Assembly: GCA_964577175.1 (NCBI GenBank)
Contig: CAZNYC010000001.1
Coordinates: 14,851-78,850, forward strand
Length of the DNA: 64,000 nt
Origin: an uncultured Anaerolineales bacterium
GTDB taxonomy: Bacteria > Planctomycetota > Phycisphaerae > FEN-1346
Direction of reading: 5' to 3'
Shown one piece after another: positions 12,001-44,570 of the stretch (the first letter of the stretch is position 1; each line of letters starts with the position of its first letter). A program made the translations under genes and the position numbers. A model generated the notes under the pieces. That model had not been told where the DNA came from. It ran no database searches and saw only the letters and a program-made list of their open reading frames with translations.

Positions 12001-15000
12001 CCTGGACACCGGCGCCGCCTGGACGGTCATCGACACCGACGACCTCCACTGGGACGACCTCTGCGACATCGCCGTGGCCGATGACGGCACCATCTACGCG
12101 CTCACGTGGGATTTCGTGGGCGGCAGCCACCCGATCGAACTGAACGTCCTGGCGTTCGCGTCCAACGGCGACCCCCTGAATGCTGGAAATCCGCTGGTCA
12201 CCGACACCCTGCCCACCGGGGCCCAGGACGCCACCATGGAACTTGGTCCGGACGGGCGGCTGTACGTGACGAATCCGCCCGAGGCCGCCGTCTGCGTCTA
12301 CAACCTCGACACGGGCGCGCGCGAGGAAACGCTCGTCTCCGGCGCGGGGGCGCTCCTGGCGCCGAGTTTCGTCACCTTCCGCCCGCCCACGTATTCGTAC
12401 GAGGTCGTGACCGACACCGGCGGCGCCGGGGGCGGCGCCGGGGCCCAGTTGGTCGACGGCGACGTGCGCGACGTCTTCACCTTCGAAACGGCGCCGGGGT
12501 ATCAGGGCACGGCCCAGATGACCGTCATCGCGCGCGACGCGATGCGCCGGCCGGGGCTGGGGCGCAACCTGCCCAAGCGAGGCCGCGACGCCGAAATCAC
12601 CTTCAACCTCCACGCCGGCACGGGCGGCATCTACGGCACCAAGTTCGACGACCTCGACGGCGACGCCGAGCGCGATGTCGGCGAACCCGGCCTCGAAAAC
12701 TGGGTCATCTTCCTGGACCTCAACGCCGACGGCGACCGGGATAGCGGCGAGCCGTGGACCCTGACGGATGCGAACGGCGACTACGCGCTGGTGGACCTGG
12801 ACTTCGGCCATTACGTCGTGGCCGAGACGCCCCAGGACCACGCCGGCCAGACCTTCCCCGAGCCCGGCCAGGCGGTCGGCGAGACCGTCCTGCTCGACAC
12901 CGATTTCGAGGAGGGCGAGGACGGCTTCACGATCGAGAACGTCGGCGGCGGCGCACCCGGCCTGTGGCACCGCTCCGACTACCACGGCGGTGAAGCCGGG
13001 CACGGCGGCGACTGGTGCTTCTATTTCGGGCGCGAACCCGAGCACGACTACGACACCGGCACCCCCGCCGGCCGCATCATTACCCCCGAAATCAGCCTCG
13101 CCGGCGTTACCGACGCCGCCCTCTCGTTCAATTACTACCTGGACGTCGAATACAGCCGCAGTTACGACTGGGCCGACGTCTACGTCTCGACCAGCGGCTT
13201 CGCCTGGACGAAGGTGGCGTCGCGCTACGGCGAGACGGACCCCGACCTTGAATGGATCATCGACCGCGAGGAGGTCTCCTCCTGGCACAGCCTCACCGTC
13301 GACCTGGACGACTGGCTCGGCGAAGAGATCGTCATCAAGTTCGAGTTCCGCACCTTCAGCCCGCAGTACAACGACCACGAAGGCTGGCTTGTCGACGACG
13401 TGACGGTCACCGCCGACCTTGCCGCTGCGGGCGTCCACGCCGTTCTTGTCGACGACGACGAGCCGGTCGCCGACGACCGCGACTTCGGCAATCAGCAAAT
13501 CGTCGACGCCGGTCCCGACCGGCAGGTGGACGAGGGCGACGTTGTGGAACTCGACGCCTGGGTGGCGGACCTGGAAGTCGCCTATCTCCTGGAGGACATC
13601 AACGGCGCCGGCAGTTCGGGGCCCCTGTGGTTCACCGAATACGCGGGCGACCTCTACTTCGCCGCCACCGGCAGCCAGGGACGCGAGTTGTACGTCTGGG
13701 ACGACAACGCCGTCCAGATGGTCGCCGACATCCGGCCCGGCGCCCTGTCGTCGTCTCCTTCGGAATTGACCGTCTACGACGGCGCCCTCTACTTCGCCGC
13801 CGACGACGGATCGACCGGCACCGAACTGTACCGGTACACGCCCAAAGACGGCGTCCAGTTGGCCGCCGACATCGCGCCCTCCGGCAGTTCGACCCCGGCG
13901 AACCTGTTCGTCTGGGACGGCAACCTGTACTTCTCCGCGTACGAGACCGCCGCAGTCGGCCGGGAACTGTACGTCCTCAGCGACAAAGGTGCCCACCTCG
14001 CGGCGGACGTCAATCCGGAGGGCAGCAGCGACCCCGGCGAATTCGCAGCCTACGGCGGACATCTCTATTTCGCCGCCACCACCAGGGGGACCGGGCGCGA
14101 ACTCTACGCCTACGACGGGAACCGCGTTCAGCCGGCGGCCGATATCCGGCCCGGCACGCCTTCCTCCGAACCCACCGACCTCATTGCCTTCAACGGCTAC
14201 CTGTTCTTTGCCGCCACCCATCCCGATGCCGGCCGCGAACTGCTCGTCTGGGACGGTTCGGAGGTCGCGGTGGCCCTGGACCTGGCTCCCGGCGCCGTCG
14301 GGTTCCCGGCCGTCCCACGCAGTTCCTCGCCGCAATACATGACCTACCATAAGGGCGGGCTGTACATGGCCGCCACCAACAGCCAGGGCGACCGCGAACT
14401 CGTCGCCTGGGACGGCAGCAGCAAGGTCTCCTGGATCGACGTCAACGACGACGGCTCCTCGCATCCCTACGACCTCGTCGTGTTCGACAACCGCGTCTAC
14501 TTCACCGCGAGCGACGACATCCACGGCCAGGAACTGTTCCGCCTCGAAGGCCTGAAGGCCGTCCTCGCCGCCGACATCCGCGAGGGGGCCTCCTCCAGCC
14601 CCGCCGCCATGACACCCTACAACGGGAAACTCTTCTTCCAGGCCGTCGATACCGGCGTCGGCGACGAACTGTTCTGCTTCGATCTCGATCCCGGCCTGGC
14701 TTACCACTGGCTGGTCACCGGCGGACCCTATACGAATCCCACGAGTTACGACGAGGCCCACTTCGAGTTCACGCCCATCGACGCCGACATCTACCTCGCC
14801 ACCCTGACCGTGACCGTCGAGGGCACCGGCGACACCTACCAGGACCGGTGCCGGGTCTTCGCCGACGACGTCCTGCCGACCGTCGAGGCCGGCCCGGACG
14901 CCGCCGTCGGCGAGGGCGAGACCTTCGAACGGTCCCTCACCATCGACGACCCCGGCTGGGACGACTGGACCGTCACGGTCTCCTGGGGCGACGGCGCCGA

Positions 15001-17404: not shown

Positions 17405-17485
17405 CCGGCTCCTGACCCTTCGAGGGGAACGGGGCGTTGTCTCGCTCCATCCCCTCAGCACGGATGGCCTTCCTGAGTCGGGGCG

Positions 17486-20158
17486 TCACAAATCACGTTC
17501 GAGGCAGGGCTGAATCAGGTTGGCCACCAGCGCCGTCCAGCCGGTCTGGTGCGAGGCGCCCAGCCCCTCGCCCGTGTCGCCGTGGAAATACTCGTGGAAC
17601 AGGACGGCCTGGCGGGGCAACGGGTCGTCGTCGGCGAGGTGCTCGCCCATGCCGGGGCGCCGGCCGTTTGCGTCAAGCGTGAAAAGGCTGATGAGCCGGC
17701 GGGCGAGGTCGTCGGCGGCCTCCGCCAAGGTCATCCGGTTGCCCGAGCCGGTGGGCACCTCGACGGTGAAGGCGTCGCCATAGTAACGGTGGTAGGTGCG
17801 AAGGGCCTGGATGAAGAGGAAGTTGATGGGCATCCAGACGGGCCCGCGCCAGTTGGAGTTGCCCCCGAACAGGGCGGTCTGCGACTCGCCGGGCTCGTAC
17901 TGGATGCAGTGCTGGCCGACGCCCTCGCCGACGGTGCAGGTCTCGGTTTCGTGGGCCTTCGAGAGCGACCGCAGGCCGTAGGGCGAGAGGAACTCGTCCT
18001 CGTCGAACACGCGGGCGAGCACCCGCTCCAGGCGGTCGCGGTCGCAGATGGCGAGCAGGCGCCGATTGCCCTCGCCCTCCTCGGCGATGGGGGCGATCGG
18101 CTTCAGAAGCCACGGACGGTGGTCCAGAAACCACTCCATCCGCCGGCGGAAGTCCGGCACGGCGTCGAGCGTGTCGGGGGCAACGGTTTCGGCGGCCAGA
18201 AGCGGAATGAGTCCGGTGTACGAGCGGGCGCGCATCTGCTGGAACCGCCCGCCCGGCAGGTGGAGGACGTCGTAGAAGAAGCCGTCCACCTCGTCCCACA
18301 GCCCCACGCCCCCGCCGCCCACGTTGGTGATGGCACCGGCAATGTAGATGAAATGCTCGAAGAACTTGGTGGCCACGTCCTCGTAGGCCGGGCGGGTCCG
18401 GGCCAGGTGCAGGGCGATGCGAAGCATCGCCAGGCAGTAGGCGGCCATCCACGCCGTACCGTCGGCCTGTTCCACGTGCCCGCCGCCGGGCACGGCGCCG
18501 CTGCGGTCGAAAACGGCAATGTTGTCGAGTCCCAGGAACCCGCCCTGGAACACGTTGTTGCCGTCGGCGTCGAGGCGGTTGACCCACCACGTGAAGTTGA
18601 GCAGCAACTTGTGAAAGATGCGTTCGAGGAAGTCGGGGTCCTCCTCGCCGGTAACCTCGGAGGCGATGCGGTGGACCTCCCAGGCCGCCCAGGCGTGGAC
18701 GGGCGGGTTGGCGTCGTCGAGGCTCCACTCGCCACCGGGCAACTGGCCGCTGGGGTGCATGTACCACTCGCGAAGGAGCAGAATGAGTTGGCGCTTGGCC
18801 CACTCGGGGTCGACGCGCGCCAGCGGCACCGTCTGAAGGGCCAGGTCCCAGGAGGCGAACCAGGGGAACTCCCACTTGTCGGGAACCGAGAGCACGTCCG
18901 CACAGTACAGGTGCCGCCAGCCGGCGTTGCGGCCCTTCCGGCGCTGCGGCGGCGAGGGGTACGCCGGGTCGCCGTCCTGCCACAACTGGACGCCGTAATG
19001 GTAGAACTGCTTGTTCCACAGCAGCCCCGCCAACGCCTGGCGCTCGATGCGGCGCCGGTCGTCATCCAATCCCTCGGGTTGGACGGCGGCGTAGAAGGCG
19101 TCCGCCTCGGCGATGCGGGTCCGGAAGGTGTCGTCGAAGCCGTCGAACGGCGCGTCCTGCGCGTGGGGGCTCAGGCGGACTCGCACGGTGAACGCCTCGC
19201 CCGGGCGGACCACCGCCTGGACATGCGCGGCCGCCTTCGTGCCGCGCCCGTCCGGATTGACGCGTCCCCCGTCGCCGTCGACGACGGCGTCGTTGATGCC
19301 GTCCTTGGTATACGTCTGCTCGTTGGGCCGGTTGAACAGCCGCCGGTGGTTCGTTGCGTTCTCGGTGAAGAGCAAGCGCGGTGCCGTCTGGTCCTGCGTG
19401 TCGACATACCACCAGCGGTCCCCCAGGTGCCGGTCCCACGCCTTGACGGCTGCCTCGCCGGCCGCTTCGAGCGCCGGCGGCTGCCGCTTGTAGCCCCAGC
19501 CCCACGTCTTACGGAACCAGAGGTGCGGCAGGACGTGGAGCGGGGCCGGCTCCGGGCCGCGGTTCGTGGCGGTGATGCGGCACAGGAGGTCCTCTTCGTC
19601 GCGCTTGGCGTACTCGATGAGGACGTCGAAGTACCGCCCCTCGGCGAAGGCGTCGGCCAGGGCGTCGGCGAGTTCGAACTCCGGCTCGCCCCGGCCGCGG
19701 CGGCCGTCCTCCTCCACCAGCCGCCCGTACGGAAACCGCACCTGCGGGTACCGGTATAGCATCTTCATGTACGCATGCGATGGGAGGCCGTCGAGATACG
19801 CGTACACCTCCTTGACGTCCTCGCCGTGGTTGCCCTGCGTGCCGGTCAGGCCGAAGAGGCGTTCCTTGAGGATCGGGTCGCGTTCGTTCCAGAGGGCGAC
19901 GGCCAGGCAGAGGTTCTGGAAGCGGTTGCAGACGCCACCCAGGCCGTCCTCGTTCCAGCGGTAGGCGCGGGCGACGGCGTGGTCGAACGGGAAGTACTCC
20001 CACGCCGACCCGTCCGGGGAGTAGTCCTCCCGCACGGTGCCCCACGTACGTTCGGCAACGTAAGGCCCCCAGTTCTTCCAGTCGGCTTCGCGGGCGGCGG
20101 AAGCGGCCATCCGGCGGTGCTCGGCGGTATCGGGGTAGGTCATAGCGGCGCCTTTCAT
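17486..20158 (-). CDS. Glycoside hydrolase family 63-like protein (mannosylglycerate/glucosylglycerate hydrolase-type glucosidase)
   Basis: 890-aa ORF. The N-terminal motif WKNWGPYVAERTWGTVREDYSPDGSAWEYFPFDHAVARAYRWNEDGLGG is characteristic of bacterial GH63/MGH-family enzymes. ATG at 20158 is preceded by GGGGGTGA (RBS-like). Confidence 0.65.
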   Translation of the reverse strand: MKGAAMTYPDTAEHRRMAASAAREADWKNWGPYVAERTWGTVREDYSPDGSAWEYFPFDHAVARAYRWNEDGLGGVCNRFQNLCLAVALWNERDPILKERLFGLTGTQGNHGEDVKEVYAYLDGLPSHAYMKMLYRYPQVRFPYGRLVEEDGRRGRGEPEFELADALADAFAEGRYFDVLIEYAKRDEEDLLCRITATNRGPEPAPLHVLPHLWFRKTWGWGYKRQPPALEAAGEAAVKAWDRHLGDRWWYVDTQDQTAPRLLFTENATNHRRLFNRPNEQTYTKDGINDAVVDGDGGRVNPDGRGTKAAAHVQAVVRPGEAFTVRVRLSPHAQDAPFDGFDDTFRTRIAEADAFYAAVQPEGLDDDRRRIERQALAGLLWNKQFYHYGVQLWQDGDPAYPSPPQRRKGRNAGWRHLYCADVLSVPDKWEFPWFASWDLALQTVPLARVDPEWAKRQLILLLREWYMHPSGQLPGGEWSLDDANPPVHAWAAWEVHRIASEVTGEEDPDFLERIFHKLLLNFTWWVNRLDADGNNVFQGGFLGLDNIAVFDRSGAVPGGGHVEQADGTAWMAAYCLAMLRIALHLARTRPAYEDVATKFFEHFIYIAGAITNVGGGGVGLWDEVDGFFYDVLHLPGGRFQQMRARSYTGLIPLLAAETVAPDTLDAVPDFRRRMEWFLDHRPWLLKPIAPIAEEGEGNRRLLAICDRDRLERVLARVFDEDEFLSPYGLRSLSKAHETETCTVGEGVGQHCIQYEPGESQTALFGGNSNWRGPVWMPINFLFIQALRTYHRYYGDAFTVEVPTGSGNRMTLAEAADDLARRLISLFTLDANGRRPGMGEHLADDDPLPRQAVLFHEYFHGDTGEGLGASHQTGWTALVANLIQPCLERDL

Positions 20159-20263
20159 CAGGTCACCCCCATTCTAGGCCGACGCCGGCCGGGTAAACAA
20201 GAAGCGGCATAGAAGGCCGGCCGGGCTGGCAAGAGAGGCGTGCCATGGCTTTTCGCTAAGTGC

Positions 20264-20293
20264 TTGTCACGAACCGGCTGCAAGCCCTAGAAT
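20264..20293 (+). promoter_or_regulatory. Sigma70-like promoter for the rSAM-ArsM operon (TTGTCA-N18-TAGAAT)
   Basis: TTGTCA at 20264-20269, an 18-nt spacer, and TAGAAT at 20288-20293, about 100 nt upstream of the GTG start at 20391. The 5' UTR contains the hairpin cgttcgggccttccgaacg. Confidence 0.35.
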
Positions 20294-20390
20294 CGGTGTG
20301 GTCCAGAGACGACTCGCCACGTTCGGGCCTTCCGAACGGCCAGGGCCGGCCGGCGGCGGGCAGTGCAGGACATCCCTTGAGGAGCGCACC

Positions 20391-23300
20391 GTGCCATTCG
20401 ACCTCACCGCCTGGACCCGCCTCGAGAGCGACGGTGTGCCCGTCTACGTCCAGCCCGAGCGGCCGGACTGGTTCGTGCCCAACGCGGCCGCCGACCGCAT
20501 CCTGCAGTCTCTGGCGGGGGGGACCACGCCGGACGGTCACATCGAGACCCTTCGCCTGCTCGACCGTCTGCCGGACACGCCCGCCCCGGCGTACGCGGGC
20601 CGGGCCGAGCGCCTGTCGCTCGACCACCTGCGCGAACTCTGGCTGCACGTCACGAACCGCTGCAACATGGCGTGTCGGCACTGCCTGTTCGCCTCCGGGC
20701 CGGACGACGCGGCGGCACTGCCGCGGGACCGCGTCCTCGCCATCGCCCGCGAGGTGGTTGATCTCGGCTGCCGCGTCTTCGCCCTGACCGGCGGCGAGCC
20801 GACCATCCACCCGGAGTTCGAGTCCATCGTGGACGACCTGCTTGGGCTGGCGGACTCGACCGTGGTGGTTCTCACGAACGGTCGGGCCCTGCCCGCCCTG
20901 GCCGCGTCCATGGACCGCTGGCCGGCCGACCGGGTCCACCTCCAAGTCAGCCTGGACGGTCTGGGCGACCGGCACGACCGCATCCGCGGGCGCGGGGCGA
21001 TGGCCGAACTCCTGTGCAACCTCGCCTGCCTGCGCGACGGGGGCCGGCCGTTCACCCTGTCGATGTGCGTGACCGGCGAGAATGTGGCCGACATGCCCGG
21101 CCTGGTCCGCTTCGCCGCCGACGCCGGCGCCACGAACGTCCACTTCATGTGGTATTTCGTGCGTGGCCGCGGCGAGCGGGACGGCTTCGTCCCGCCGGAC
21201 GCGATCTTCCCGCACCTGGCAGAGGCGGCGGAGACCGCAGAGGACGTGGGCGTCGGCGTCGACAACCTCGACGCCTTGGCGAGCCAGGCGTTCGCGCCGC
21301 CGGGCACGATTCACGACGGCTCGACGAGCGGGTGGGAATCGGTGGCCGTCGGGCCGGACGGCAGGTTGTACCCCTCGGCGGCGCTCGTCGGCATGCCGAA
21401 TCTCGCCACGCCGCTCGATGGCGGCCTGGAGCGGGCCTGGCGCGAGGGTCCCCCGCTGCGGCGCCTGCGGCAGCGTACGGCCGCGGGGCTGGATTCACCG
21501 CTCCGCCTGCTGACCGGCGGCGGCGACCCGGACCACAGTTATACGGCGGGGGGAACGTTCGTCGGCGACGACCCGTACCTGCCGCTCCAGGAACGGACGC
21601 TGCTCTGGCTCATCGCCCGCGAGGCGTCGCGCTGGCCGGACGACGGCCCGCCCGCGGTGCGCCTGAAGATGGGCGACGTCCTGGAGTCGTGCGGCCCGCA
21701 CGGCCCCGTGGCCACCGTCCACAACAACTGCCTCGTCTCGGTGGCGGGGACCGACGGCCGGACCGCCGTCCGCACGTTCTACGCCGAGGCCGCCCGCAAC
21801 CCGCGTGAGGACATCCTCAATCCCGTGGCGTACCCGGAGGACCTGATTGCCCACATCCCGGACGCATCGCGCGTCCGCAGTTACGGCTGCGGCAGCCCGG
21901 TGCTGGAGGCGACCCTCGCCCCCGGCGACCGCGTGGTGGACCTCGGCTCCGGCAGCGGCGTGGAGTGTTTCGTTGCGTCACGGCTCGTGGGGCCGGACGG
22001 CGAAGTCCTCGGCGTCGACATGCTGGACGCGATGCTCGACCTCGCGCGGGAAGGCGCGCGCGGCGTGGCCGAGCGGCTCGGCTACGCGAACCTCGCCTTC
22101 CGCAAGGCGTATCTGGAGGCCCTGCCGCTTCCGGACGACTGGGCCGACGTCGTCGTCTCGAACTGCGTCCTGAACCTGTCGACGCACAAGCGGCGGACGT
22201 TCGCCGAGATTCACCGCATTCTGAAGCCCGGCGGGCGGCTCGTCGTGGCGGACGTGGTCTGCGAGACCGAGCCGGACACCGCCATCCGCAACGACGACTC
22301 GCTTCGCGGGGAGTGCATCGCGGGGGCGCTTACGCAGCGCGACCTGGCGGGGCTCCTCAGCGAGTCGGGCCTCGTGGGCCTGCGGGTGCTGAAGCGGTTC
22401 CCGTACCGGACGGTGCGGGGTCATCCGTTCTACTCCCTGACGTTCGAGGCGCGCACGGCCGCCGTCTCCGGCGAAACGGCCCGTGTGATGTACCGCGGCC
22501 CGTTTGCCTCGGTCACGACCTGCGCGGGGACGGTCCTGCCCGCCGGCCGCACGCGCGAGGTCCAGGCCGACGAGGTCCGCGGCGCGGGCGACGGCCTGCT
22601 CCGGCTCGACGCCGCCGGCCGCGTGACGAACGTGGCGATGGAGGCCTCGTGCGCGTGCGGCGAGCCGGAGGCCGAGACGCCCGAGGCGCCGTCCGTTCCG
22701 GCGCCGACGGCGAAACACGCCGCCGGCTGCATGGTCTGCGCGGCGCCGCTCGTTTACCACGACGTGCCTCGCTCCGCCGCCTGCGCCTACTGCGGCGAGA
22801 AGTCTGAGACGGCGGCGCTGTGCGAGGCCGGTCACTTCGTCTGCGACGCCTGTCACGCCGCCGACGCCCTGGCGCTCATCGAGCGGTCGTGCCTGGCCTC
22901 GGACGAGACGGACATGGCGACCCTGATGGAGCGTATCCGGCGGCACCCGGCCGTCCCGATGCACGGGCCGGAACATCACGGCCTCGTGCCCGGGGTGATC
23001 CTGGCGACGGCCCGGAACCTGGGCGAGCCGGTGACCGACGAGATGGTCCGCCGGGGCATCGGCCGGGGGTTGCAGATTTGCGGCGGCCACTGCGCCTACA
23101 TGGGCGCGTGCGGGGCCGCGCTGGGCGTCGGCGTGGCGTTCGGCATCCTGCTCGACGCCAGCCCCGTCAAGGGGGCCGAGCGGCGGGCGGTGCAGTGGGT
23201 GGTGACCGAGGCGCTCACCCCCATCGCCGACCTGGAGGCGGGCCGCTGCTGCCAGCGCGACGCCTGGCTGGCCCTCCGGAAGGCCGCGGACACATCGCAG

Positions 23301-23438
23301 GCCATCCTGGGCTTTCGGCTTCACGCCGACGCGGCGGTCGTCTGCTCGCAGACGACCGAGAACACCGAGTGCATCGGAGCAGCCTGCCCGCTCGCACGCG
23401 TCGGGGCCGCTACAGAGATGGAAGGAGAGACGGCATGA
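20391..23438 (+). CDS. arsM: Fusion protein: radical SAM domain + ArsM-type arsenite S-adenosylmethionine methyltransferase + C-terminal Cys-rich domain
   Basis: GTG at 20391 with GGAG 7 nt upstream, in frame with the listed 20298..23438 ORF. The radical SAM CxxxCxxC is CNMACRHC (LWLHVTNRCNMACRHC). ArsM hallmarks: SYGCGSPV, VDLGSGSGVEC, VVSNCVLNL and GECIAGAL, matching the conserved ArsM Cys residues. The ~300-aa C-terminal region carries many Cys pairs (CACGEP, CMVCAAP, CAYCGE, CDACH, ICGGHCAYMGACG, GRCCQRD). Confidence 0.8.
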   Translation: MPFDLTAWTRLESDGVPVYVQPERPDWFVPNAAADRILQSLAGGTTPDGHIETLRLLDRLPDTPAPAYAGRAERLSLDHLRELWLHVTNRCNMACRHCLFASGPDDAAALPRDRVLAIAREVVDLGCRVFALTGGEPTIHPEFESIVDDLLGLADSTVVVLTNGRALPALAASMDRWPADRVHLQVSLDGLGDRHDRIRGRGAMAELLCNLACLRDGGRPFTLSMCVTGENVADMPGLVRFAADAGATNVHFMWYFVRGRGERDGFVPPDAIFPHLAEAAETAEDVGVGVDNLDALASQAFAPPGTIHDGSTSGWESVAVGPDGRLYPSAALVGMPNLATPLDGGLERAWREGPPLRRLRQRTAAGLDSPLRLLTGGGDPDHSYTAGGTFVGDDPYLPLQERTLLWLIAREASRWPDDGPPAVRLKMGDVLESCGPHGPVATVHNNCLVSVAGTDGRTAVRTFYAEAARNPREDILNPVAYPEDLIAHIPDASRVRSYGCGSPVLEATLAPGDRVVDLGSGSGVECFVASRLVGPDGEVLGVDMLDAMLDLAREGARGVAERLGYANLAFRKAYLEALPLPDDWADVVVSNCVLNLSTHKRRTFAEIHRILKPGGRLVVADVVCETEPDTAIRNDDSLRGECIAGALTQRDLAGLLSESGLVGLRVLKRFPYRTVRGHPFYSLTFEARTAAVSGETARVMYRGPFASVTTCAGTVLPAGRTREVQADEVRGAGDGLLRLDAAGRVTNVAMEASCACGEPEAETPEAPSVPAPTAKHAAGCMVCAAPLVYHDVPRSAACAYCGEKSETAALCEAGHFVCDACHAADALALIERSCLASDETDMATLMERIRRHPAVPMHGPEHHGLVPGVILATARNLGEPVTDEMVRRGIGRGLQICGGHCAYMGACGAALGVGVAFGILLDASPVKGAERRAVQWVVTEALTPIADLEAGRCCQRDAWLALRKAADTSQAILGFRLHADAAVVCSQTTENTECIGAACPLARVGAATEMEGETA

Positions 23439-24295
23439 GACGCGCCCTGCTGTTGCTGGTGGCATGGGCGGTGCTGTGCGGCGCGCGAACGCCGCCAGGC
23501 GCTGCCGCGGACGGCGGGTTCGGGTACGACGCCTACGCCGCCGTCCTCGACCGATACGTCGATGATACCGGCATGGTCGGCTACAAGGCCCTGAAGGCAG
23601 ACCGCGGCGGACTGGACACGTTCGTCACCCGCCTCGGGAGGCTCGACCGGAAAACCTACCGAGGGTGGAATGAGAAGGCGAAGATCGCCTTCTGGATCAA
23701 CGCCTATAACGGCCTGACCCTGAAGACCATCATTAATCACTATCCCATCAAGGCAAGTTGGTGGCGGTCGCTGCGGTACCCGAAGAACAGCATCCGGCAG
23801 ATTTCGGGCGTGTGGGACGACATCACCCACGACGTCATGGGCCGGAAGATGACCCTGGAGGACATCGAACACGAGACCCTGCGCAAGGCGTTCGACGAGC
23901 CGCGCATCCATCTCGCCCTCGTCTGCGCGGCCATGGGATGCCCGCCGCTGCGGAACAAGCCGTACCGCGGCGACAAACTGGACGCGCAGTTCGCCGACCA
24001 GGCGCGCGCCTTTCTTTCGAACCCGAAGACGTTCCGCATCGACCGGGCGGCGGGCGAGGTGTACCTCTCGCCGATCTTCAAGTGGTTCGGCGAAGACTTC
24101 GTGCCGGGGTACGTGCCCGAGAAGGGCTTCGGCAACCGTGGCAAGACGCTGCGGGCCGTCCTGAATTACGTGGCCGGGCACCTCCGGCAGAAAGACGCCG
24201 AGTACCTCCGCACCGGCGAGTACGACGTCGAGTACCTGGACTACGACTGGACGCTGAACGCACAAAGCGAGGCCCGCGATGATGCCGCCGACTAA
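23435..24295 (+). CDS. DUF547 domain protein with signal peptide
   Basis: ATG at 23435 overlaps the upstream stop as ATGA. RBS GGAAGGAGAG lies upstream. Signal peptide MRRALLLLVAWAVLCGA. DUF547 motifs AFWINAYN and HLALVCAAMGCPPL. Confidence 0.8.
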   Translation: MRRALLLLVAWAVLCGARTPPGAAADGGFGYDAYAAVLDRYVDDTGMVGYKALKADRGGLDTFVTRLGRLDRKTYRGWNEKAKIAFWINAYNGLTLKTIINHYPIKASWWRSLRYPKNSIRQISGVWDDITHDVMGRKMTLEDIEHETLRKAFDEPRIHLALVCAAMGCPPLRNKPYRGDKLDAQFADQARAFLSNPKTFRIDRAAGEVYLSPIFKWFGEDFVPGYVPEKGFGNRGKTLRAVLNYVAGHLRQKDAEYLRTGEYDVEYLDYDWTLNAQSEARDDAAD

Positions 24296-25061
24296 ACCCA
24301 AGCCGGAAGCGGAAGCAACCGAGGAGGCGGCTTCGCCCGCGCGCCGCCGCGGCGTCTGGCGCCTGATCCTCCTGGGCCTGGCGGTCGCCGGCCTGGCGGT
24401 CGCGTCCTACCTCCTGCCCGTGCGCGCCTACCTGGAGCGCGTGCTCCGGTGGACCGAGGGTTTGGGTGAGTGGGGTCTGCTGGTCGCCGGTGGCATCTAC
24501 ATTCCCGCCACGGTCCTGTTCGTCCCGGGGGTCGTGCTGACGGTGGGGGCGGGGTTCCTGTACCCCCTGTGGCAGGCGGTGCCGGCGATGTCGATCGGCA
24601 GCACACTCGGGGCGTGCGCCGCGTTCCTGGTGGGCCGGACGGTGGCCCGCGACTGGGTCGCGCGCAAGGTCAAGGGCCGGCCGACGTTCGAGGCGATCGA
24701 CGACGCCGTCGGCCGAGAGGGCTTCAAGATCGTCCTGCTCACGCGCCTCTCGCCGGTCTTCCCGTTCAATCTGCTGAACTACGCCTACGGCCTGACACGG
24801 GTGCCTTTCTGGAAATACGCCCTGGCCTCGTGGATCGGCATGCTGCCGGGCACACTGATGTACGCCTACATCGGGTCCGGCCTCCGCTCGCTGGCGGCGG
24901 TGACGGCCGAACGGACCGAGCGGTCCACGCTGGAGCAGGTCTTCTTCTGGGTCGGCCTCGCCGTCGCCGTCATCGTGGTCGCGGTGGTGACCCGCGTGGC
25001 CCGCAAGGCCCTGAAGCGTGCCACCGACGAACGCCTGGCCGACGACGAGGAGGACGCATGA
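24279..25061 (+). CDS. TVP38/TMEM64 (DedA/SNARE-associated) family membrane protein
   Basis: 260 aa, multi-TM, with motif LSPVFPFNLLNYAYGLT. Overlaps the upstream gene by 17 nt. GAGG RBS 8 nt before the ATG. Confidence 0.8.
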   Translation: MMPPTKPKPEAEATEEAASPARRRGVWRLILLGLAVAGLAVASYLLPVRAYLERVLRWTEGLGEWGLLVAGGIYIPATVLFVPGVVLTVGAGFLYPLWQAVPAMSIGSTLGACAAFLVGRTVARDWVARKVKGRPTFEAIDDAVGREGFKIVLLTRLSPVFPFNLLNYAYGLTRVPFWKYALASWIGMLPGTLMYAYIGSGLRSLAAVTAERTERSTLEQVFFWVGLAVAVIVVAVVTRVARKALKRATDERLADDEEDA

Positions 25062-26578
25062 CCGCCTACGGCAAGGTCGAACCGCGCGACGCGCATAACG
25101 AGCGGCTCTTGTCCAATGCCCACCCGCCGGACTGGACGAACCCCGAGCCGGCCGGGCGGTACAACCTCGTCGTCCTCGGCGCCGGGACGGCCGGTCTGGT
25201 CACGGCGGCCGGGGCGGCCGGACTCGGCGCGAAGGTCGCCCTGGTGGAGCGGCACCTGATGGGCGGCGACTGCCTGAACGTCGGGTGCGTGCCCAGCAAG
25301 AGCCTGATCCGCTCGGCCCGGGCCGCCCACGACGCCCGCGACGCCGCACGCTTCGGCGTGCAGGTAGGCGGCGAGGTGACGGTCGACTTCCCCGCCGTCA
25401 TGGAGCGGGTACGGCGCATCCGGGCCGACATCAGCGCCAACGACGCCGCCGAGCGGTTCCGCGACCTCGGCGTGGACATCTTCCTCGGCGAGGGCCGGTT
25501 CACGGGCGACGACACGGTCGAGGTGGCCGGGCAGACCCTCCGCTTCGCCCGGGCCGTCGTCGCAACGGGCGCCCGGGCGGTCCACCCGGACGTGCCGGGC
25601 CTCGCGGAGGCGGGGTTCCTGACGAACGAGACGGTCTTTTCGCTAACGGAGCGGCCCGAGCGGCTGGCCGTCCTCGGCGCCGGCCCCCTCGGCTGCGAAC
25701 TCGCCCAGGCCTTTCAGCGGCTCGGGTGCCGGGTGACGCAGATCCAGCGCAAGGGCCAGATCCTGACGCGAGAGGACCCCGACGCCGCCGCCGTCGTCGC
25801 CGAAGCGATGCGACGCGACGGCGTGGACGTGCGGCTGAGCAGTACCCTTGCCCGCGTTGAGCCGACCGAGACCGGCAAGCGCCTGCACCTGGAGACGCCG
25901 GACGGCGAGGACGGGGTGGAGGTCGACGAGATCCTCGTCGGCGCCGGGCGGGCGCCGAACGTCCAGGGCCTCGGCCTGGACGCCGTGGGCGTGCAATACG
26001 ATGACCGGCACGGCATCGAGGTGGACGACCGGCTGCGGACGACCAACCCGCACGTGTACGCCGCCGGCGACGTGTGCCTGAAGGACAAGTTCACGCACAC
26101 GGCGGACGCGGCGGCGCGGATCGTCATTCAGAACGCTCTCTTCTGGGGCCGGAAGAAGGTTTCCGCCCTCACCATCCCCTGGTGCACGTACACGGATCCC
26201 GAGATCGCCCACGTGGGCCTGTACGAGGCCGACGCCCGCGAGCGGGGCATCGAGGTCGACACGTTCACCGAGCGGTTCGAGGACGTTGACCGGGCCCTCG
26301 CCGACGGCGAGGCCGAGGGACTCCTCAAGGTCCACCTCCGCAAAGGCACGGATCACATCCTCGGCGCCACGCTCGTGGCGCGGCACGCGGGCGAAACGAT
26401 CAGCGAACTGACGCTGGCGATGACGGCCGGCGTCGGGCTCGGAAAGGTGGCGTCCACGATCCACCCGTACCCGACGCAGGCGGAGGCCGTGAAGCACGTC
26501 GCGGACGCGCAGAACCGCACGCGCCTCACGCCGCGCACGCGGGCGCTCTTTGAATGGATTTTAGCGAAGCGGCGGTAG
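25058..26578 (+). CDS. FAD-dependent pyridine nucleotide-disulfide oxidoreductase (mercuric reductase/dihydrolipoamide dehydrogenase-like, no NmerA, no C-terminal Cys pair)
   Basis: ATG at 25058 overlaps the TVP38 stop (ATGA). FAD fold GAGTAGL. Redox-active disulfide GGDCLNVGCVPSK. Dimerisation-domain-like C-terminus. Confidence 0.8.
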   Translation: MTAYGKVEPRDAHNERLLSNAHPPDWTNPEPAGRYNLVVLGAGTAGLVTAAGAAGLGAKVALVERHLMGGDCLNVGCVPSKSLIRSARAAHDARDAARFGVQVGGEVTVDFPAVMERVRRIRADISANDAAERFRDLGVDIFLGEGRFTGDDTVEVAGQTLRFARAVVATGARAVHPDVPGLAEAGFLTNETVFSLTERPERLAVLGAGPLGCELAQAFQRLGCRVTQIQRKGQILTREDPDAAAVVAEAMRRDGVDVRLSSTLARVEPTETGKRLHLETPDGEDGVEVDEILVGAGRAPNVQGLGLDAVGVQYDDRHGIEVDDRLRTTNPHVYAAGDVCLKDKFTHTADAAARIVIQNALFWGRKKVSALTIPWCTYTDPEIAHVGLYEADARERGIEVDTFTERFEDVDRALADGEAEGLLKVHLRKGTDHILGATLVARHAGETISELTLAMTAGVGLGKVASTIHPYPTQAEAVKHVADAQNRTRLTPRTRALFEWILAKRR

Positions 26579-26611
26579 CCGGCCGCATGCCGCTGCCCCA
26601 CGCGTCCGTGG

Positions 26612-27535
26612 TCACGGCGCCATGCGGGACGGCGGGCCCTGCGTCGCCGCCTCGGCGCGCCGCGTGCGAACCCCTTCCGTCCGCCGCCAGTACCGGCGCT
26701 GCCGCCGCAGCGGCATGGCCAGCACGGACCGCACGCGGTTGTCGTCCGGCTTGAGGTACGCCGGCACGCCGATCGTGACCTTGTCCTGCGGCACGTTGAG
26801 ACGGAGGCTGCGATGCAGGCGGTCCCACCCGGAGAAGATGGTCGAGTAGTTGGAGTCGGTTTCCCGCCGAACGACCGAATGATGGATGCCGTGCATGCGC
26901 GGCGTGACGACGACCTTGTTCAGCCATCGCTCCAGCCGCACCGGAAGGCGCACGTTGCTGTGGTGGAACACGGTCCCGCACTGGAAGACCGTCTCGAACA
27001 CGATATACGTCAGCGGACCGACGCCGAGCACGGTCACCTGGGCGGCACGGAAGGCCGTCGAGTACAGCACTTCGCCCGGATGGAAGCGAAACGAGGTGGT
27101 GGTGTCGAGGTCCGGGTCGATGTGGTGGGCGCAGTGGAACCGCCACAGCAGCCCCACCCGATGGTTCGCCCGGTGCCACCAGTAGAACGTCAGGTCCATC
27201 AGCACAACGCCCGCGAGCACCGCCGCCGGCAACGGCAGCGACAGGCGGGCCAGCAGCCCCACGCCGCTCTCCTGGTTCCAGCGGGCCAGGGCGAGCGCCG
27301 CGGGTACCACGGCCAGCCTGCCGGCCGCAAACGCGCCCGCCGACGTCCAGGCGTTGGTCCACAGCCGGCGCCGGAGCCCTCGCTTGGGGGTCCGAAGCGG
27401 CCGCACCCGCTCGGCAGCGAAGAGTCCGAGGAACGTGACGGCGATAGCCGCCGACGGCGCGAAACGTCTCAAAGTGTCGAGGTCCACGTCAAACCGTCCT
27501 CCCACGGCCCATTGTACCAGGGGGGCGGAGGGCAT
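26612..27535 (-). CDS. Fatty acid hydroxylase superfamily protein (sterol desaturase/ERG3-like integral membrane di-iron enzyme)
   Basis: Histidine boxes HRANH, HCAHH and HGIHH, with multi-TM segments. ATG at 27535 is directly preceded by AGGAG. The alternative ATG at 27622 and the ORF start at 27718 are also possible. Confidence 0.65.
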   Translation of the reverse strand: MPSAPLVQWAVGGRFDVDLDTLRRFAPSAAIAVTFLGLFAAERVRPLRTPKRGLRRRLWTNAWTSAGAFAAGRLAVVPAALALARWNQESGVGLLARLSLPLPAAVLAGVVLMDLTFYWWHRANHRVGLLWRFHCAHHIDPDLDTTTSFRFHPGEVLYSTAFRAAQVTVLGVGPLTYIVFETVFQCGTVFHHSNVRLPVRLERWLNKVVVTPRMHGIHHSVVRRETDSNYSTIFSGWDRLHRSLRLNVPQDKVTIGVPAYLKPDDNRVRSVLAMPLRRQRRYWRRTEGVRTRRAEAATQGPPSRMAP

Positions 27536-27693
27536 CTCCTGAGAAAGCGAAACCGGTGGACGGCCGGGGCGCCCCCTCCCCCTGCGAACGGGCGGCGCAA
27601 AAAAACTTAACGGAATGCCCATTGACCCTGGCCGGACCGTTATCATGTCAGAAGAGTGGTGCGAACGTCTCAAGAAACGAAAGGGGAACGACC

Positions 27694-28350
27694 ATGCGTA
27701 ACCGAACGAACCGGACATCCTGGGCCGCGCTCGCGGCCGTCGCCGTGCTGCTGGTCGCGGCGGGCTGCGACCACGAGCATCCGACCGGTGCAGAACACCC
27801 GGAGGAAGGGGCCGAGCACCCGGCCGAGCATCCGTCGGGCGCCGCGGCCGAGGCCGTCACACTGGACGACGTGGCCGACGCCATCGTCGACTACGTCGAG
27901 AAGCAGGGCGGCGCCATCGAGATTGAGGACCCCGCCGCCGGCGAGACGGTGAAACTGACGCTCGACAAGGTCCACCGCGATCGCCTGTCCCGGACCGCGC
28001 CGAACGTGTACTTCGCCTGCGCCGACTTCAAGGCCCCCGACGGCACCGTGTACGACATCGACATGTTCATGAAGGGAGAGACCCCCGAGGCGCTCACCTT
28101 CACCGAAATGACGGTGCACAAGATCGGCGGCGAGGCGCGCTACACGTGGTACGAGGAAGGCGGCGTGTGGAAGAAGAAGATGGCCGAGGGCGTCGAGGCC
28201 GCAAAGCCACAGAAGGAGCATCCCGAGGGCGCCGAGCACCCCGAGGGCGCCGAGCACCCCGAGGGCGCCGAGCATCCCGAGGCCGCAAAGCCACAGAAGG
28301 AGCATCCCGAGGGCGCCGAGCACCCCGAAGGGGCCGAGCATCCCCAGTAA
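27694..28350 (+). CDS. His-rich repeat lipoprotein (putative periplasmic metal-binding)
   Basis: ATG at 27694 after AAAGGGGA. Signal peptide with lipobox-like VLLVAAGC. N-terminal HEHPTGAEHPEEGAEHPAEHP. C-terminal tandem HPEGAE x7 encoded by an 18-nt DNA repeat (cccgagggcgccgagcac) at ~28210-28340. Confidence 0.6.
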   Translation: MRNRTNRTSWAALAAVAVLLVAAGCDHEHPTGAEHPEEGAEHPAEHPSGAAAEAVTLDDVADAIVDYVEKQGGAIEIEDPAAGETVKLTLDKVHRDRLSRTAPNVYFACADFKAPDGTVYDIDMFMKGETPEALTFTEMTVHKIGGEARYTWYEEGGVWKKKMAEGVEAAKPQKEHPEGAEHPEGAEHPEGAEHPEAAKPQKEHPEGAEHPEGAEHPQ

Positions 28351-28374
28351 CGAGCGGCCGAAAGGAGACGCAGC

Positions 28375-29493
28375 ATGCGACTGCGCCCGAGGTATGCGGC
28401 AAGGAGTCTGAGCGTCGTCGCGGTCGGGCTCGTCCTGGCGTGCGGCGCTTGCGACCGCCAGGCCGAAACGCCGGCGGGGGCGCAGGGGATTCGCTGCGTC
28501 GAGGTCTTCTACCAGGTGACCGTGCCGGACGTGCCGGCCGGCGCCGACCGCATCACGGCGTGGGCGCCCATTCCGCCCACGGACGCCCACCAGACGCTCG
28601 ACCACATGGAACTCGAGCAGCCGCTGCCGTACCGCCTGGAAGTGGAGCCGGCGCACGGGAACCGGCTGCTGGTGGTCGACCTGTCGGAGGCCGACCGGTC
28701 GGACGGGGCCGTCGGGTTCACGGCCGTATTCTGCGTCACGCGGCAGGCGTACCGGGTCCTGGGGTCGGCGGTGTCCACCGAACCGCTCCGCCCCGAACAG
28801 CAGGCGGAGTACCTGGCGCCGGACCCGCTCGTCCCGACCACCGGCCAGGTGGCCGAAGAGGCCCGTCGCGTGGCCGGCGACGCCGAGGAGCCGCTACGCA
28901 TGGCCCGCCGCGTTTACGACCACCTCATCGAAACGATGGAGTACAAGAAGGTCGGCGAGGGCTGGGGCAAGGGCGACGCCGTCTACGCCTGCAATGCGCG
29001 GCGGGGCAACTGCTCCGATTTCCACAGTCTGTTCATCGGCGAGGTCCGAAGCCTGAACGTCCCCGCCCGCTTCACCATGGGCCTGCCGTTGCCGGAAGAC
29101 AAGACCGAGGGCGGGATTCCCGGCTACCACTGCTGGGCCGAGTTCTACCTGCCCGAGGAACAGGTGTGGGTGCCCGTGGACGCGTCCGAGGCGCACAGGC
29201 GGCCCGAGAAACGCGAGGCGTTCTTCGGCGGCCTGGACGAGCACCGCGTGGCCTTCAGCCGCGGCCGGCAGGTGCCCCTGCCCGACGCCGACGCCGAGCC
29301 CCTCAACTTCGTCATCTACGCGCACGTGGAGGTCGACGGCAAGCCGCACCCGGGTGTGCAGACGTCCTTCCGCTTTGCCGACCGCGAGAGGGTCCGCGTG
29401 CCGACCGTGGAAACGGCCAGACGCCCGCGCGGCACGCCCGTTCCGCTCGCGAACCGTCCGGCGGGTTGCACGGCAAAGGCGCCCAGGCGATAA
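28375..29493 (+). CDS. Transglutaminase-like superfamily lipoprotein (Cys protease fold)
   Basis: AAAGGAG RBS 7 nt upstream of the ATG. Signal peptide/lipobox LVLACGAC. Transglutaminase core RGNCSDFHSLFIGE with downstream His/Asp (GYHCWAEFY...VPVD). Confidence 0.7.
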   Translation: MRLRPRYAARSLSVVAVGLVLACGACDRQAETPAGAQGIRCVEVFYQVTVPDVPAGADRITAWAPIPPTDAHQTLDHMELEQPLPYRLEVEPAHGNRLLVVDLSEADRSDGAVGFTAVFCVTRQAYRVLGSAVSTEPLRPEQQAEYLAPDPLVPTTGQVAEEARRVAGDAEEPLRMARRVYDHLIETMEYKKVGEGWGKGDAVYACNARRGNCSDFHSLFIGEVRSLNVPARFTMGLPLPEDKTEGGIPGYHCWAEFYLPEEQVWVPVDASEAHRRPEKREAFFGGLDEHRVAFSRGRQVPLPDADAEPLNFVIYAHVEVDGKPHPGVQTSFRFADRERVRVPTVETARRPRGTPVPLANRPAGCTAKAPRR

Positions 29494-29502
29494 TCCACCC
29501 CC

Positions 29503-39709: not shown

Positions 39710-40315
39710 TCAGTCCAGCGAAGCCATGCCCATGAATCCCATGAACGCCAGGGCCATGACGCCCGTGACGATCATGACGATCGAGACGCCCCGGAATGCC
39801 GGGGGCAGGTTCGCGTACCCCATCTTCTGCCTGAGGCCCGTCATCAGCGTAATGGCCAGCGCGAACGCCAGGCCCGACCCCAGCCCGTACCACGACGCCT
39901 GCCACAGGCTGTAATCGAAGATGTTGATGGCGAAGAGGCTCGCGCCCAGGATGGCGCAGTTGACGGTAATCAGCGGCAGGAAGATGCCCAGCGAGTAGTA
40001 CAGCGTCGGGCTGAACCGCTCGACCACCATCTCCACCAACTGCACGAACGCCGCAATCACCGCAATGAACACGACGAACTGGAGATGCTCCAGCCCCAGC
40101 GGCACGAGCACCTGGTGATGGATCACGTGGTTCAGGATCGTGGTCGAGGTCATGACGAACGTCACGGCCGCCCCCAGGCCGAGGCTCGTCTCGTACTGCT
40201 TCGAGCATGCCAGGAACGAACACATCCCCAGGAAGTAGACCAGGAGAATGTTGTTCGTGAAGATGGCCGCGAAGAAGATGACCAGCGCGCCGGGGCCGCC
40301 CGTCGGGTCGGTCAT
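39710..40315 (-). CDS. nqrE: Na+-NQR subunit E
   Basis: ATG at 40315 with GGAGG 8 nt upstream. Polytopic NqrE/RnfA-family membrane protein (GMCSFLACSKQ, TVNCAILG). Confidence 0.85.
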   Translation of the reverse strand: MTDPTGGPGALVIFFAAIFTNNILLVYFLGMCSFLACSKQYETSLGLGAAVTFVMTSTTILNHVIHHQVLVPLGLEHLQFVVFIAVIAAFVQLVEMVVERFSPTLYYSLGIFLPLITVNCAILGASLFAINIFDYSLWQASWYGLGSGLAFALAITLMTGLRQKMGYANLPPAFRGVSIVMIVTGVMALAFMGFMGMASLD

Positions 40316-44515: not shown

Positions 44516-44570
44516 CGCCGCGCACGAGGCCGCGTGGTCGTGTTAAAGGGTGCGAGCCGGGAGGCGAACC

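Follow-up and report, generated by a model that had tools for sequence, protein, structure and literature searches.

A fused radical SAM–ArsM-type protein as a candidate replacement for ArsM plus ArsS in a Phycisphaerae arsenosugar-type gene cluster

We analysed a 64,000-nucleotide stretch of contig CAZNYC010000001.1 (assembly GCA_964577175.1; GTDB Phycisphaerae, FEN-1346), hereafter the window, with a focus on its gene 1, which encodes a 1015-aa fusion of a radical S-adenosylmethionine (SAM) domain, an ArsM-like methyltransferase and a zinc ribbon/DUF5714 module. On balance, and with modest confidence, we read this protein as a functional replacement in one polypeptide for the separate enzymes ArsM and ArsS, which would convert As(III) to dimethylarsinoyl-deoxyadenosine within an arsenosugar-type organoarsenical cluster. 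The analysis shows the domain identities, their conservation and a neighbourhood equivalent to that of ArsS/ArsM clusters, from which we infer the whole of the chemistry, the metalloid concerned and the end product. Arsenosugar-type clusters in which an ArsM works with a radical SAM enzyme are already known; what is new here is the fusion, the unrelated lineage of its radical SAM part, and the extra domain. An earlier sequence-only reading of this DNA had proposed a biosynthetic enzyme of the ArsM plus ArsS kind, and this idea gains strong support from context, through shared accessory genes and the local mutual exclusion of ArsS and the fusion.

One open reading frame with three conserved domains

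Gene 1 (20391..23438, + strand; assigned by open reading frame (ORF), Pfam and NCBIfam) starts with a GTG at 20391, preceded 7 nt upstream by the Shine-Dalgarno sequence GAGGAG at 20378-20383, and the resulting N-terminus coincides with those of 120 homologues. The product is 100% identical to one database protein, and its full-length homologues show 52-87% identity. Its Pfam domains are Radical_SAM (residues 87-242), a methyltransferase (511-651) and DUF5714 (830-1001), confirming that a single ORF joins a radical SAM domain to a complete ArsM-type domain. The domains are laid out as follows.

20391..21800, + strand: residues 1-470, N-terminal beta3-alpha domain, radical SAM core, SPASM-like extension and linker (Pfam PF04055, NCBIfam, Foldseek)
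21801..22625, + strand: residues 471-745, ArsM-type As(III) SAM methyltransferase with C-terminal beta domain (NCBIfam, PDB sequence and fold matches)
22722..23393, + strand: residues 778-1001, zinc ribbon and all-alpha DUF5714 (Pfam, Cys census)

Every motif that had been listed for the protein from its sequence (CNMACRHC, YGCGSP, DLGSGSG, SNCVLNL and GECIAGAL) was found, as was a Cys-rich tail, with 19 Cys in residues 700-1015 (the last 316). An AlphaFold2 model built on 120 homologues reached a pLDDT of 91 and a pTM of 0.76. A conservation census of Cys and motifs, also over 120 homologues, showed the radical SAM Cys, C434, C447, the three ArsM Cys, eight zinc-ribbon Cys/His and seven DUF5714 Cys to be invariant. 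In the model, C434 and C447 are located in a lower-confidence segment between domains.

For the methyltransferase domain, the top NCBIfam family was the arsenite methyltransferase NF008823 (202.4 bits), with other ArsM-derived families next, and the top PDB sequence matches were CmArsM (4FR0/4KW7, E 2.5e-34), CrArsM and human AS3MT. The class I SAM-binding motif is present as VVDLGSGSG (Methyltransf_31 at 1.6e-27). The As(III) ligands C72, C174 and C224 of CmArsM (4KW7/4FR0) have their aligned counterparts in C500, C592 and C642, which are invariant in 120/120 homologues. The 13 best Foldseek PDB matches of the gene 1 model were all ArsM or AS3MT, and as each alignment extends over ~300 columns, the whole ArsM architecture is present. 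Identity to a cluster-linked ArsM is 34%. The domain falls outside the AsSugarArsM exception family (108 bits, cutoff 400), and it matches the arsinothricin ArsM model NF040538 at 166 bits, far short of the cutoff of 500. A ubiquinone/menaquinone methyltransferase identity was rejected, with UbiE models at 45-60 bits versus 202 for ArsM. The ArsM half of the sequence-only reading is thereby borne out: the domain is of ArsM type and, judged by its family and its Cys triad, would methylate As(III). Compared with ArsM/AS3MT enzymes (CmArsM 4FR0/4FSD/6CX6, CrArsM 5EVJ, human AS3MT 8XT7), the domain keeps the fold over ~300 residues, the SAM motif and the equivalents of C72/C174/C224, but it is internal to a 1015-aa protein, has Ala at the C44 equivalent and is preceded by the additional invariant residues C434 and C447.

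The C-terminal module comprises a zinc ribbon (C780/C783/C798/C801; C811/H815/C818/C821/H822) and DUF5714, whose invariant Cys are C901, C907, the vicinal pair C953-C954, C985, C994 and C999. The module resembles the 'metal-binding double selenoprotein MbdU' and is found in 916 clusters at 50% identity. MbdU and the stand-alone DUF5714 proteins share with gene 1 both the zinc ribbon plus DUF5714 arrangement and the vicinal CC (CU in MbdU), but most proteins with the module stand alone and are ~240 aa long, whereas in gene 1 the module is the C-terminal domain of a fusion. Shorter radical SAM–ArsM fusions that lack DUF5714 are seen at locus L123 (2007-4523, 838 aa) and at the Terriglobia loci L058-L060 (matches of ~670-750 aa), and these still adjoin VTT, reductase or glycosyltransferase genes. 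As fusions without DUF5714 keep the same neighbours, this domain is best seen as an add-on and not as part of the core.

A radical SAM domain of SPASM-type fold

Within residues 1-470, the beta3-alpha domain covers ~1-60, the radical SAM core ~80-300 and the SPASM-like extension ~300-420, followed by the linker that carries C434 and C447. The CX3CX2C motif (C91/C95/C98) and the GGEP motif (134-137) are invariant in the 120 homologues, and from these residues the domain looks catalytically complete. The best NCBIfam models were Rv1681, ScmF, MoaA and the mycofactocin and sactipeptide maturases. The ArsL model was not among the 25 best NCBIfam matches for the N-terminal 480 aa, although the ArsL model itself was not inspected.

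Foldseek matches for residues 1-420 were the SPASM-type enzymes anSME (TMt 0.71-0.74), PqqE (0.72), SkfB and SuiB, and the N-terminal beta3-alpha domain aligns with the front part of SuiB and StsB, which binds the peptide. These SPASM/twitch maturases are the closest structural and hidden Markov model neighbours of the region, N-terminal domain and extension included. Gene 1 differs from them in that its extension lacks the Cys of an auxiliary [4Fe-4S] cluster (no conserved Cys lies between C226 and C434 in the 120 homologues), in that no conserved precursor peptide gene accompanies it, and in its fusion to ArsM. A reading as a maturase of ribosomally synthesised and post-translationally modified peptides (RiPPs) was rejected: the fusion loci hold no conserved small ORF or other such partner, and the SPASM Cys are absent.

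Accessory genes shared with ArsS/ArsM clusters

The following genes of the window enter into the comparison with other loci.

23435..24295, + strand: gene 2, DUF547 protein with signal peptide (PF04784, 1.9e-25)
24279..25061, + strand: gene 3, VTT/DedA (TVP38) membrane protein (PF09335, 2.4e-31)
25058..26578, + strand: gene 4, FAD/NAD(P) disulfide oxidoreductase, MerA-like, not MerA (NF004991, 823 bits, cutoff 620)
26612..27718, − strand: gene 5, fatty-acid-hydroxylase-superfamily membrane protein (PF04116, 5.9e-27)
29503..30795, + strand: gene 8, fused TIGR04282 (DUF2064, nucleotidyltransferase-like) and TIGR04283 (GT2) protein, 430 aa (both curated cutoffs passed)

Pfam confirmed the order proposed for the genes after the fusion (DUF547, VTT, MerA-like reductase). 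Gene 4 scores 420 bits on the MerA model TIGR02053, under the cutoff of 454; it has the redox-active CLNVGC. As had been described, it lacks NmerA and the C-terminal Cys pair, its C-terminal tail containing no Cys. Gene 8 passes as two domains of one protein, with 192.5 bits (cutoff 134) for TIGR04282 and 222.8 bits (cutoff 182) for TIGR04283, families that NCBI names 'arsenosugar biosynthesis glycosyltransferase'. Its TIGR04282 domain is CofC-like, and its GT2 domain has weak secondary matches to glucosyl-3-phosphoglycerate synthase and polyprenyl-phosphate glycosyltransferases. The sequence-only reading had noted no arsenic-resistance genes nearby; this holds, none having been seen in 17-54 kb of the window, but it does not extend to arsenic-pathway genes, as the TIGR04282+TIGR04283 glycosyltransferase gene at 29503-30795 shows.

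Homologues of the window DUF547 protein led to a Phycisphaerae contig, L085, on which an ArsM-type methyltransferase, a MIP channel, ArsS, DUF547, VTT and the reductase follow one another, with DsrE, hydroxylase-like, GT87 and GT2/DUF2064 genes further on. The ArsS of this contig (radical SAM plus DUF3641) is bona fide, at 406 bits on TIGR04167 against a cutoff of 300. Its neighbours are close relatives of those in the window, with identities of 63% for DUF547, 63% for VTT, 66% for the reductase and 41% for the hydroxylase. As this is the accessory set of the window, with separate ArsM and ArsS genes in place of the fusion, we regard L085 as the decisive context.

A metagenome scan was then made with the gene 4 reductase. 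The neighbours of the 80 relatives closest to it, which share 58-70% identity and in many cases lie on short contigs, were as follows.

VTT: 52 of 80 reductase loci
ArsS-like gene: 26 of 80
TIGR04282/3-type glycosyltransferase: 19 of 80
DUF547: 8 of 80
ArsM: 7 of 80
Hydroxylase: 4 of 80
Radical SAM–ArsM fusion: 1-2 of 80

Adding L085 (n=81) gives 53 loci with VTT, 27 with ArsS, 19 with the glycosyltransferase, 9 with DUF547, 8 with ArsM and 5 with the hydroxylase; the DUF547 count becomes 11 when the DUF547-seeded loci L086 and L087, both lacking the reductase, are included. No reductase locus contained both ArsS and the fusion. Conversely, no separate ArsS or ArsM was found in 58 fusion loci, where all tblastn matches to ArsS and ArsM fell inside the fusion gene and the only other radical SAM genes nearby were BioB-, MoaA- and photolyase-like. 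The same accessory set, combined with local mutual exclusion between the fusion and ArsS plus ArsM, amounts to a pattern of functional replacement, and for the radical SAM part that replacement is non-orthologous. The two kinds of cluster can also share a channel: an aquaglyceroporin in the fusion locus L029 is 64% identical to that of the ArsS cluster L085. Aquaglyceroporins are channels of the As(OH)3/Sb(OH)3 type, and their presence fits uptake of As(OH)3.

At three reductase loci without ArsS or the fusion (L106, L109 and L151), weak matches (31-32% identity) to the fusion radical SAM domain were observed upstream of the reductase. They may represent a third type of radical SAM gene in this setting, in high-GC contigs where ORF calls are unreliable.

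Distribution and neighbourhoods of the fusion family

Full-length fusion homologues at 52-66% identity come from Planctomycetota, Thermodesulfobacteriota and Desulfuromonadales, and remoter full-length relatives (31-65%) from Campylobacterota (Sulfurospirillum), Acidobacteriota, Nitrospirota and other phyla. As a whole, the family is widely distributed among anaerobes (Planctomycetota, Desulfobacterota, Campylobacterota), where its members are annotated merely as 'DUF5714 domain-containing protein' or 'methyltransferase'. A search of the literature accessible to us found no paper on DUF5714 or on this fusion.

Neighbours were counted within 8 kb of the fusion at 59 loci (58 others and the window), of which a subset of 37 is well flanked.

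DUF2064/GT2 (TIGR04282/3) protein: 25 of 59 fusion loci, the commonest neighbour
VTT: 20 of 59
Ferredoxin-CCG (HdrD-like) protein, frequently fused to VTT genes or lying between them: 9 of 59
Gene 4-type reductase: 7 of 59
Small rhodanese: 7 of 59
Fatty-acid-hydroxylase-like protein: 5 of 59
'Selenium metabolism-associated' LysR regulator (NF040786, 288 bits, cutoff 250): 4 of 59
Methylthioribose-kinase-like protein (TIGR01767, 241 bits, cutoff 275): 4 of 59

Among the well-flanked loci, 15/37 have the DUF2064/GT2 glycosyltransferases. The hydroxylase-like gene recurs in L005, L027, L037 and L043, and GalT/HIT-like and MsrA/MsrB genes occur in 2 loci each. The methylthioribose-kinase-like gene adjoins the fused TIGR04282/3 gene in the Sulfurospirillum-type loci L021, L024, L030 and L032, and its product is a candidate for phosphorylating 5-arsinoyl-ribose. 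The small rhodaneses were considered as Acr2-type arsenate reductases, an identity left unsupported by sequences that lack the C-X5-R motif. A Pfam census of the 1-2 nearest genes on each side of the fusion (56 loci) gave VTT in 9, DUF2064 in 8, GT2 in 7, the reductase in 3 and the hydroxylase-like family in 2; neither ars resistance families nor the selD family appeared among its top 25 families, and the lack of the former fits a biosynthetic role.

The VTT gene also keeps a type of partner. In the window and most ArsS clusters this is the flavoprotein reductase, whereas in the strict-anaerobe fusion loci L024, L030, L032, L018, L027 and L041 the VTT gene flanks, or is fused to, a ferredoxin plus CCG (HdrD-like) protein. 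The conserved theme seems to be VTT paired with a disulfide reductase, supplied by two unrelated reductases. DUF547, by comparison, is not a conserved partner of the fusion: all 58 other fusion loci lack it, and even in L005, whose fusion is 87% identical, VTT follows the fusion directly. As DUF547 joins the fusion only in the window, and otherwise sits after ArsS in canonical clusters, this suggests shuffling of modules between fusion-type and ArsS-type clusters.

Weighing the proposed replacement of ArsM plus ArsS

Several observations weigh against our reading. The sequence-only reading had called the radical SAM domain ArsS-type, and that claim fails: the ArsS model TIGR04167 (cutoff 300) comes 17th, with 50.6 bits, behind models of other families, and the fold is SPASM-type. 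Pfam detects no DUF3641 (PF12345) in the gene 1 protein, and BLASTP against a genuine ArsS aligns 116 aa at 22% identity. By sequence comparison the domain has no more in common with ArsS than membership of the superfamily, and its proposed adenosylation activity is therefore deduced from context alone. In the methyltransferase domain, the NF008823 score of 202.4 bits is under the whole-protein cutoff of 263, because the model was matched only over positions 38-235 of 272. Residue 480 (21828-21830), at the ArsM C44-like 'CC' position, is Ala in the window protein; across the 120 homologues this position is Cys in 74 and Ala in 4. Three-Cys ArsMs exist, so Ala480 does not exclude membership of the ArsM family. 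As to context, 16/37 well-flanked fusion loci have no accessory gene within 8 kb, and the LysR regulator, rhodaneses and MsrA/MsrB at some fusion loci could point to selenium or sulfur chemistry. To our knowledge, the names of TIGR04282 and TIGR04283 rest on co-occurrence with ArsS and not on experiment, and we know of no arsenosugar reported from taxa that carry the fusion.

The SPASM ancestry leaves room for another reaction, in which the radical SAM domain makes an As-C bond of another kind or works on a carbon substrate, for instance by an ArsL-like transfer of another SAM fragment or by abstracting H from a lipid or sugar before As-C coupling, to give a new organoarsenical. Members of the SPASM/RiPP-maturase structural lineage abstract H atoms, and the SuiB/StsB-like front end, the extra conserved Cys-rich domain, and the hydroxylase-like lipid enzyme and VTT of the cluster would all suit such chemistry. 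Nevertheless, residues 227-433 contain no Cys for an auxiliary cluster and no conserved small peptide gene is adjacent, while the fusion occupies the position of ArsS among ArsS partners (nucleotidyltransferase plus GT2, in some loci with the methylthioribose-kinase-like protein) that are best suited to a 5-substituted ribose. We consider this reaction unlikely.

It is also conceivable that the same architecture handles another metalloid, namely Se, Te or Sb, with a methylated or adenosylated product such as a selenosugar. This would account for the 'selenium metabolism-associated' LysR in 4 fusion loci, the rhodanese genes in 7, MsrA/MsrB in 2, and the match of DUF5714 to the selenoprotein MbdU, and several selenoprotein families hold ArsM-like domains (PMC13188914). 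The LysR link may, however, merely reflect selenoproteins in such clusters, and neither selD nor selA is among the commonest neighbours of the fusion. A three-thiolate site is moreover the hallmark of As(III) binding, and of the binding of its trivalent monomethylated form MAs(III), in ArsM/AS3MT structures, and together with the accessory genes common to ArsS/ArsM clusters and the aquaglyceroporin in L029 and L085, it makes another metalloid decidedly improbable.

Least probable of all is a detoxifying arsenic methyltransferase for anoxic habitats, with radical SAM and DUF5714 domains that only supply electrons or re-reduce a catalytic disulfide and with neighbours that are unrelated redox-stress genes: the family is indeed concentrated in anaerobes, 16/37 well-flanked loci lack nearby accessory genes, and disulfide reductases, Msr genes and rhodaneses are among the neighbours, but the SAM-cleaving motif set is intact and invariant, ars resistance genes are not enriched beside the fusion, the strongest partner is a glycosyltransferase pair and not a resistance gene, and the accessory set tracks ArsS. 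The ArsS-type neighbourhood is better explained by our main reading than by any of these three alternatives.

Proposed mechanism and relation to known systems

ArsS adds a 5'-deoxyadenosyl radical to trivalent dimethylated arsenic (DMAs(III)), forming 5'-deoxy-5'-dimethylarsinoyl-adenosine (PMC13598754), and in Synechocystis arsS is co-transcribed with arsM (bioRxiv 10.1101/2022.09.23.509062). If gene 1 replaces both enzymes, As(III) would be bound by the thiolates of C500, C592 and C642 in the ArsM-like domain, and two SAM methylations would produce enzyme-bound DMAs(III). The N-terminal radical SAM domain would then reductively cleave a further SAM, and the 5'-deoxyadenosyl radical would combine with the arsenic to give 5'-deoxy-5'-dimethylarsinoyl-adenosine. 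C434/C447 or the DUF5714 Cys, with their vicinal CC, could hand over the metalloid or act as a disulfide redox relay; alternatively, DUF5714 might bind an Fe-S cluster. In a fusion of this kind, DMAs(III), which is toxic and easily oxidised, would not be set free.

Downstream, adenine would be removed, after which in some lineages a methylthioribose-kinase-like or GalT/HIT-like enzyme could act. The TIGR04282 nucleotidyltransferase-like domain may activate the arsenoribose and the TIGR04283 GT2 domain may move it to a glycerol-type or lipid acceptor. These four activities fit a route from a 5-substituted ribose, through an activated sugar, to transfer onto an acceptor. Membrane or redox steps could fall to the VTT/DedA protein and the disulfide reductase paired with it, to the hydroxylase-like protein and to DUF547. 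VTT/DedA proteins are transporters of lipids or lipid carriers, and the VTT protein of the window has a weak match to UptA.

The nearest known system is ArsM plus ArsS (Synechocystis; NF038099, TIGR04167), in which an ArsM-type methyltransferase is likewise coupled to a radical SAM enzyme. Clusters of that type share with fusion clusters the TIGR04282/3 proteins, VTT, the NF004991 reductase, DUF547, the hydroxylase-like gene and the MIP channel, and with the window a biosynthetic context free of ars resistance genes. By comparison, the window carries the activities in one polypeptide, with a radical SAM domain of the SPASM/maturase lineage that lacks DUF3641 and with the extra zinc ribbon/DUF5714 module, and fusion hosts are mostly anaerobic non-phototrophs. 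ArsL/ArsM of arsinothricin biosynthesis (arsQML) also pairs an As-C-forming radical SAM enzyme with an ArsM-type methyltransferase, ArsL being a non-canonical radical SAM enzyme that transfers a 3-amino-3-carboxypropyl group (bioRxiv 10.1101/2024.02.01.577332). The window differs from arsQML in having no arsQ permease or ars operon, and its partner genes belong to a sugar pathway.

Layout of the locus and surrounding genes

The locus spans ~17.5-30.8 kb, and the unit reaches well past the interval 20391-26578 that had been delimited before, because it takes in the glycosyltransferase gene 8 (29503-30795) and the hydroxylase-like gene 5 (26612-27718). The window has a G+C content of ~70%, with 0.81-0.93 G+C at third codon positions in real genes. 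Adjacent genes overlap at all three junctions from gene 1 to gene 4. ATGA overlaps, which had been described for each of these junctions, are present between genes 1 and 2 (23435-23438) and between genes 3 and 4 (25058-25061), but the DUF547 and VTT genes overlap by 17 nt instead (ATG at 24279, TAA at 24293-24295). The promoter that had been proposed upstream of gene 1 is present and remains a candidate; it is the sole sigma70-like match across 20100-31000, where 0.4 would be expected by chance. No intrinsic terminators were found in 20100-31000, and no Rfam match of weight to a riboswitch or other leader RNA 5' of gene 1 was found in 17000-31500.

The remaining features of the locus are listed here.

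17486..20158, − strand: GH63/MGH1-like glycoside hydrolase, divergent from gene 1 (PF22422, PF03200)
20264..20293, + strand: sigma70-like promoter candidate TTGTCA-N18-TAGAAT (pattern match, 10/12 positions)
27694..28350, + strand: gene 6, His/Glu-rich repeat lipoprotein (18-nt tandem repeat)
28375..29493, + strand: gene 7, transglutaminase-like lipoprotein (PF01841, 1.2e-22)

The GH63/MGH1-like gene has a homologue, 52.6% identical, at 5802-8498 of L123, an unrelated low-GC metagenome contig, where it lies within an operon of radical SAM–ArsM, dehydrogenase, VTT and reductase genes. This hydrolase may be part of the pathway, perhaps acting in glycoside turnover. Gene 5 is convergent with gene 4, and its true start is probably near 27535, as homologues are ~260-310 aa long. 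In gene 6 an 18-nt unit that encodes EHPEGA is repeated 7.5 times in tandem at 28216-28344, and the lipoprotein is possibly metal-binding. Genes 6 and 7 (27694..29493) are transcribed in the same direction as gene 8; they are missing from the 87% relative L005, where the glycosyltransferase directly succeeds the hydroxylase, and it is uncertain whether they are part of the system.

Elsewhere in the window, the first 17 kb are filled by a 5765-aa ORF (107-17404, + strand) that appears to encode a repeat-rich surface protein. GH127, sulfatase and BNR-repeat genes separate the cluster from genes for an Rnf/Nqr-type membrane complex at 39710-44129 (− strand; RnfE/NqrD-like, RnfD/NqrB-like and ferredoxin-domain subunits). 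In a 1242-aa protein encoded at 44550-48278 (+ strand), the middle domain of hydrazine synthase alpha (PF18582, 8.5e-24) is joined by a weak match to cytochrome c and by a laminin-G-like domain, which is unusual outside anammox bacteria.

Implications

A broader proposal, which we advance tentatively, is that a radical SAM domain of RiPP-maturase (SPASM) descent arrived by convergence at the chemistry of ArsS, or gained a new reaction that forms As-C (or Se/Sb-C) bonds, and has been fused to ArsM and to DUF5714 as a metalloid-handling domain, and that the resulting enzyme underlies an unrecognised arsenosugar- or arsenolipid-like synthesis in anaerobic non-phototrophs (Desulfobacterota, Campylobacterota, Planctomycetota and Acidobacteriota). 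Only the first two steps of arsenosugar biosynthesis, those of ArsM and ArsS, are established, and the occurrence of the pathway is established only in cyanobacteria and algae.

The accessory set common to ArsS and fusion clusters offers candidates for the missing arsenosugar steps, together with a first functional context for DUF5714, for DUF547 and for the pairing of VTT with the NF004991 reductase. If our reading is correct, the later steps would be drawn from the methylthioribose-kinase-like protein, TIGR04282, the TIGR04283 GT2 domain, VTT with its disulfide reductase, the hydroxylase-like protein and DUF547. The fusion family would then be a second, non-homologous solution to radical As-C bond formation, reached by convergent evolution within the radical SAM superfamily, and would offer, within one self-contained enzyme, a means to study the channelling of a toxic intermediate. 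Many anaerobes of sediments and soils would make complex organoarsenicals, which would bear on the cycling and speciation of arsenic.

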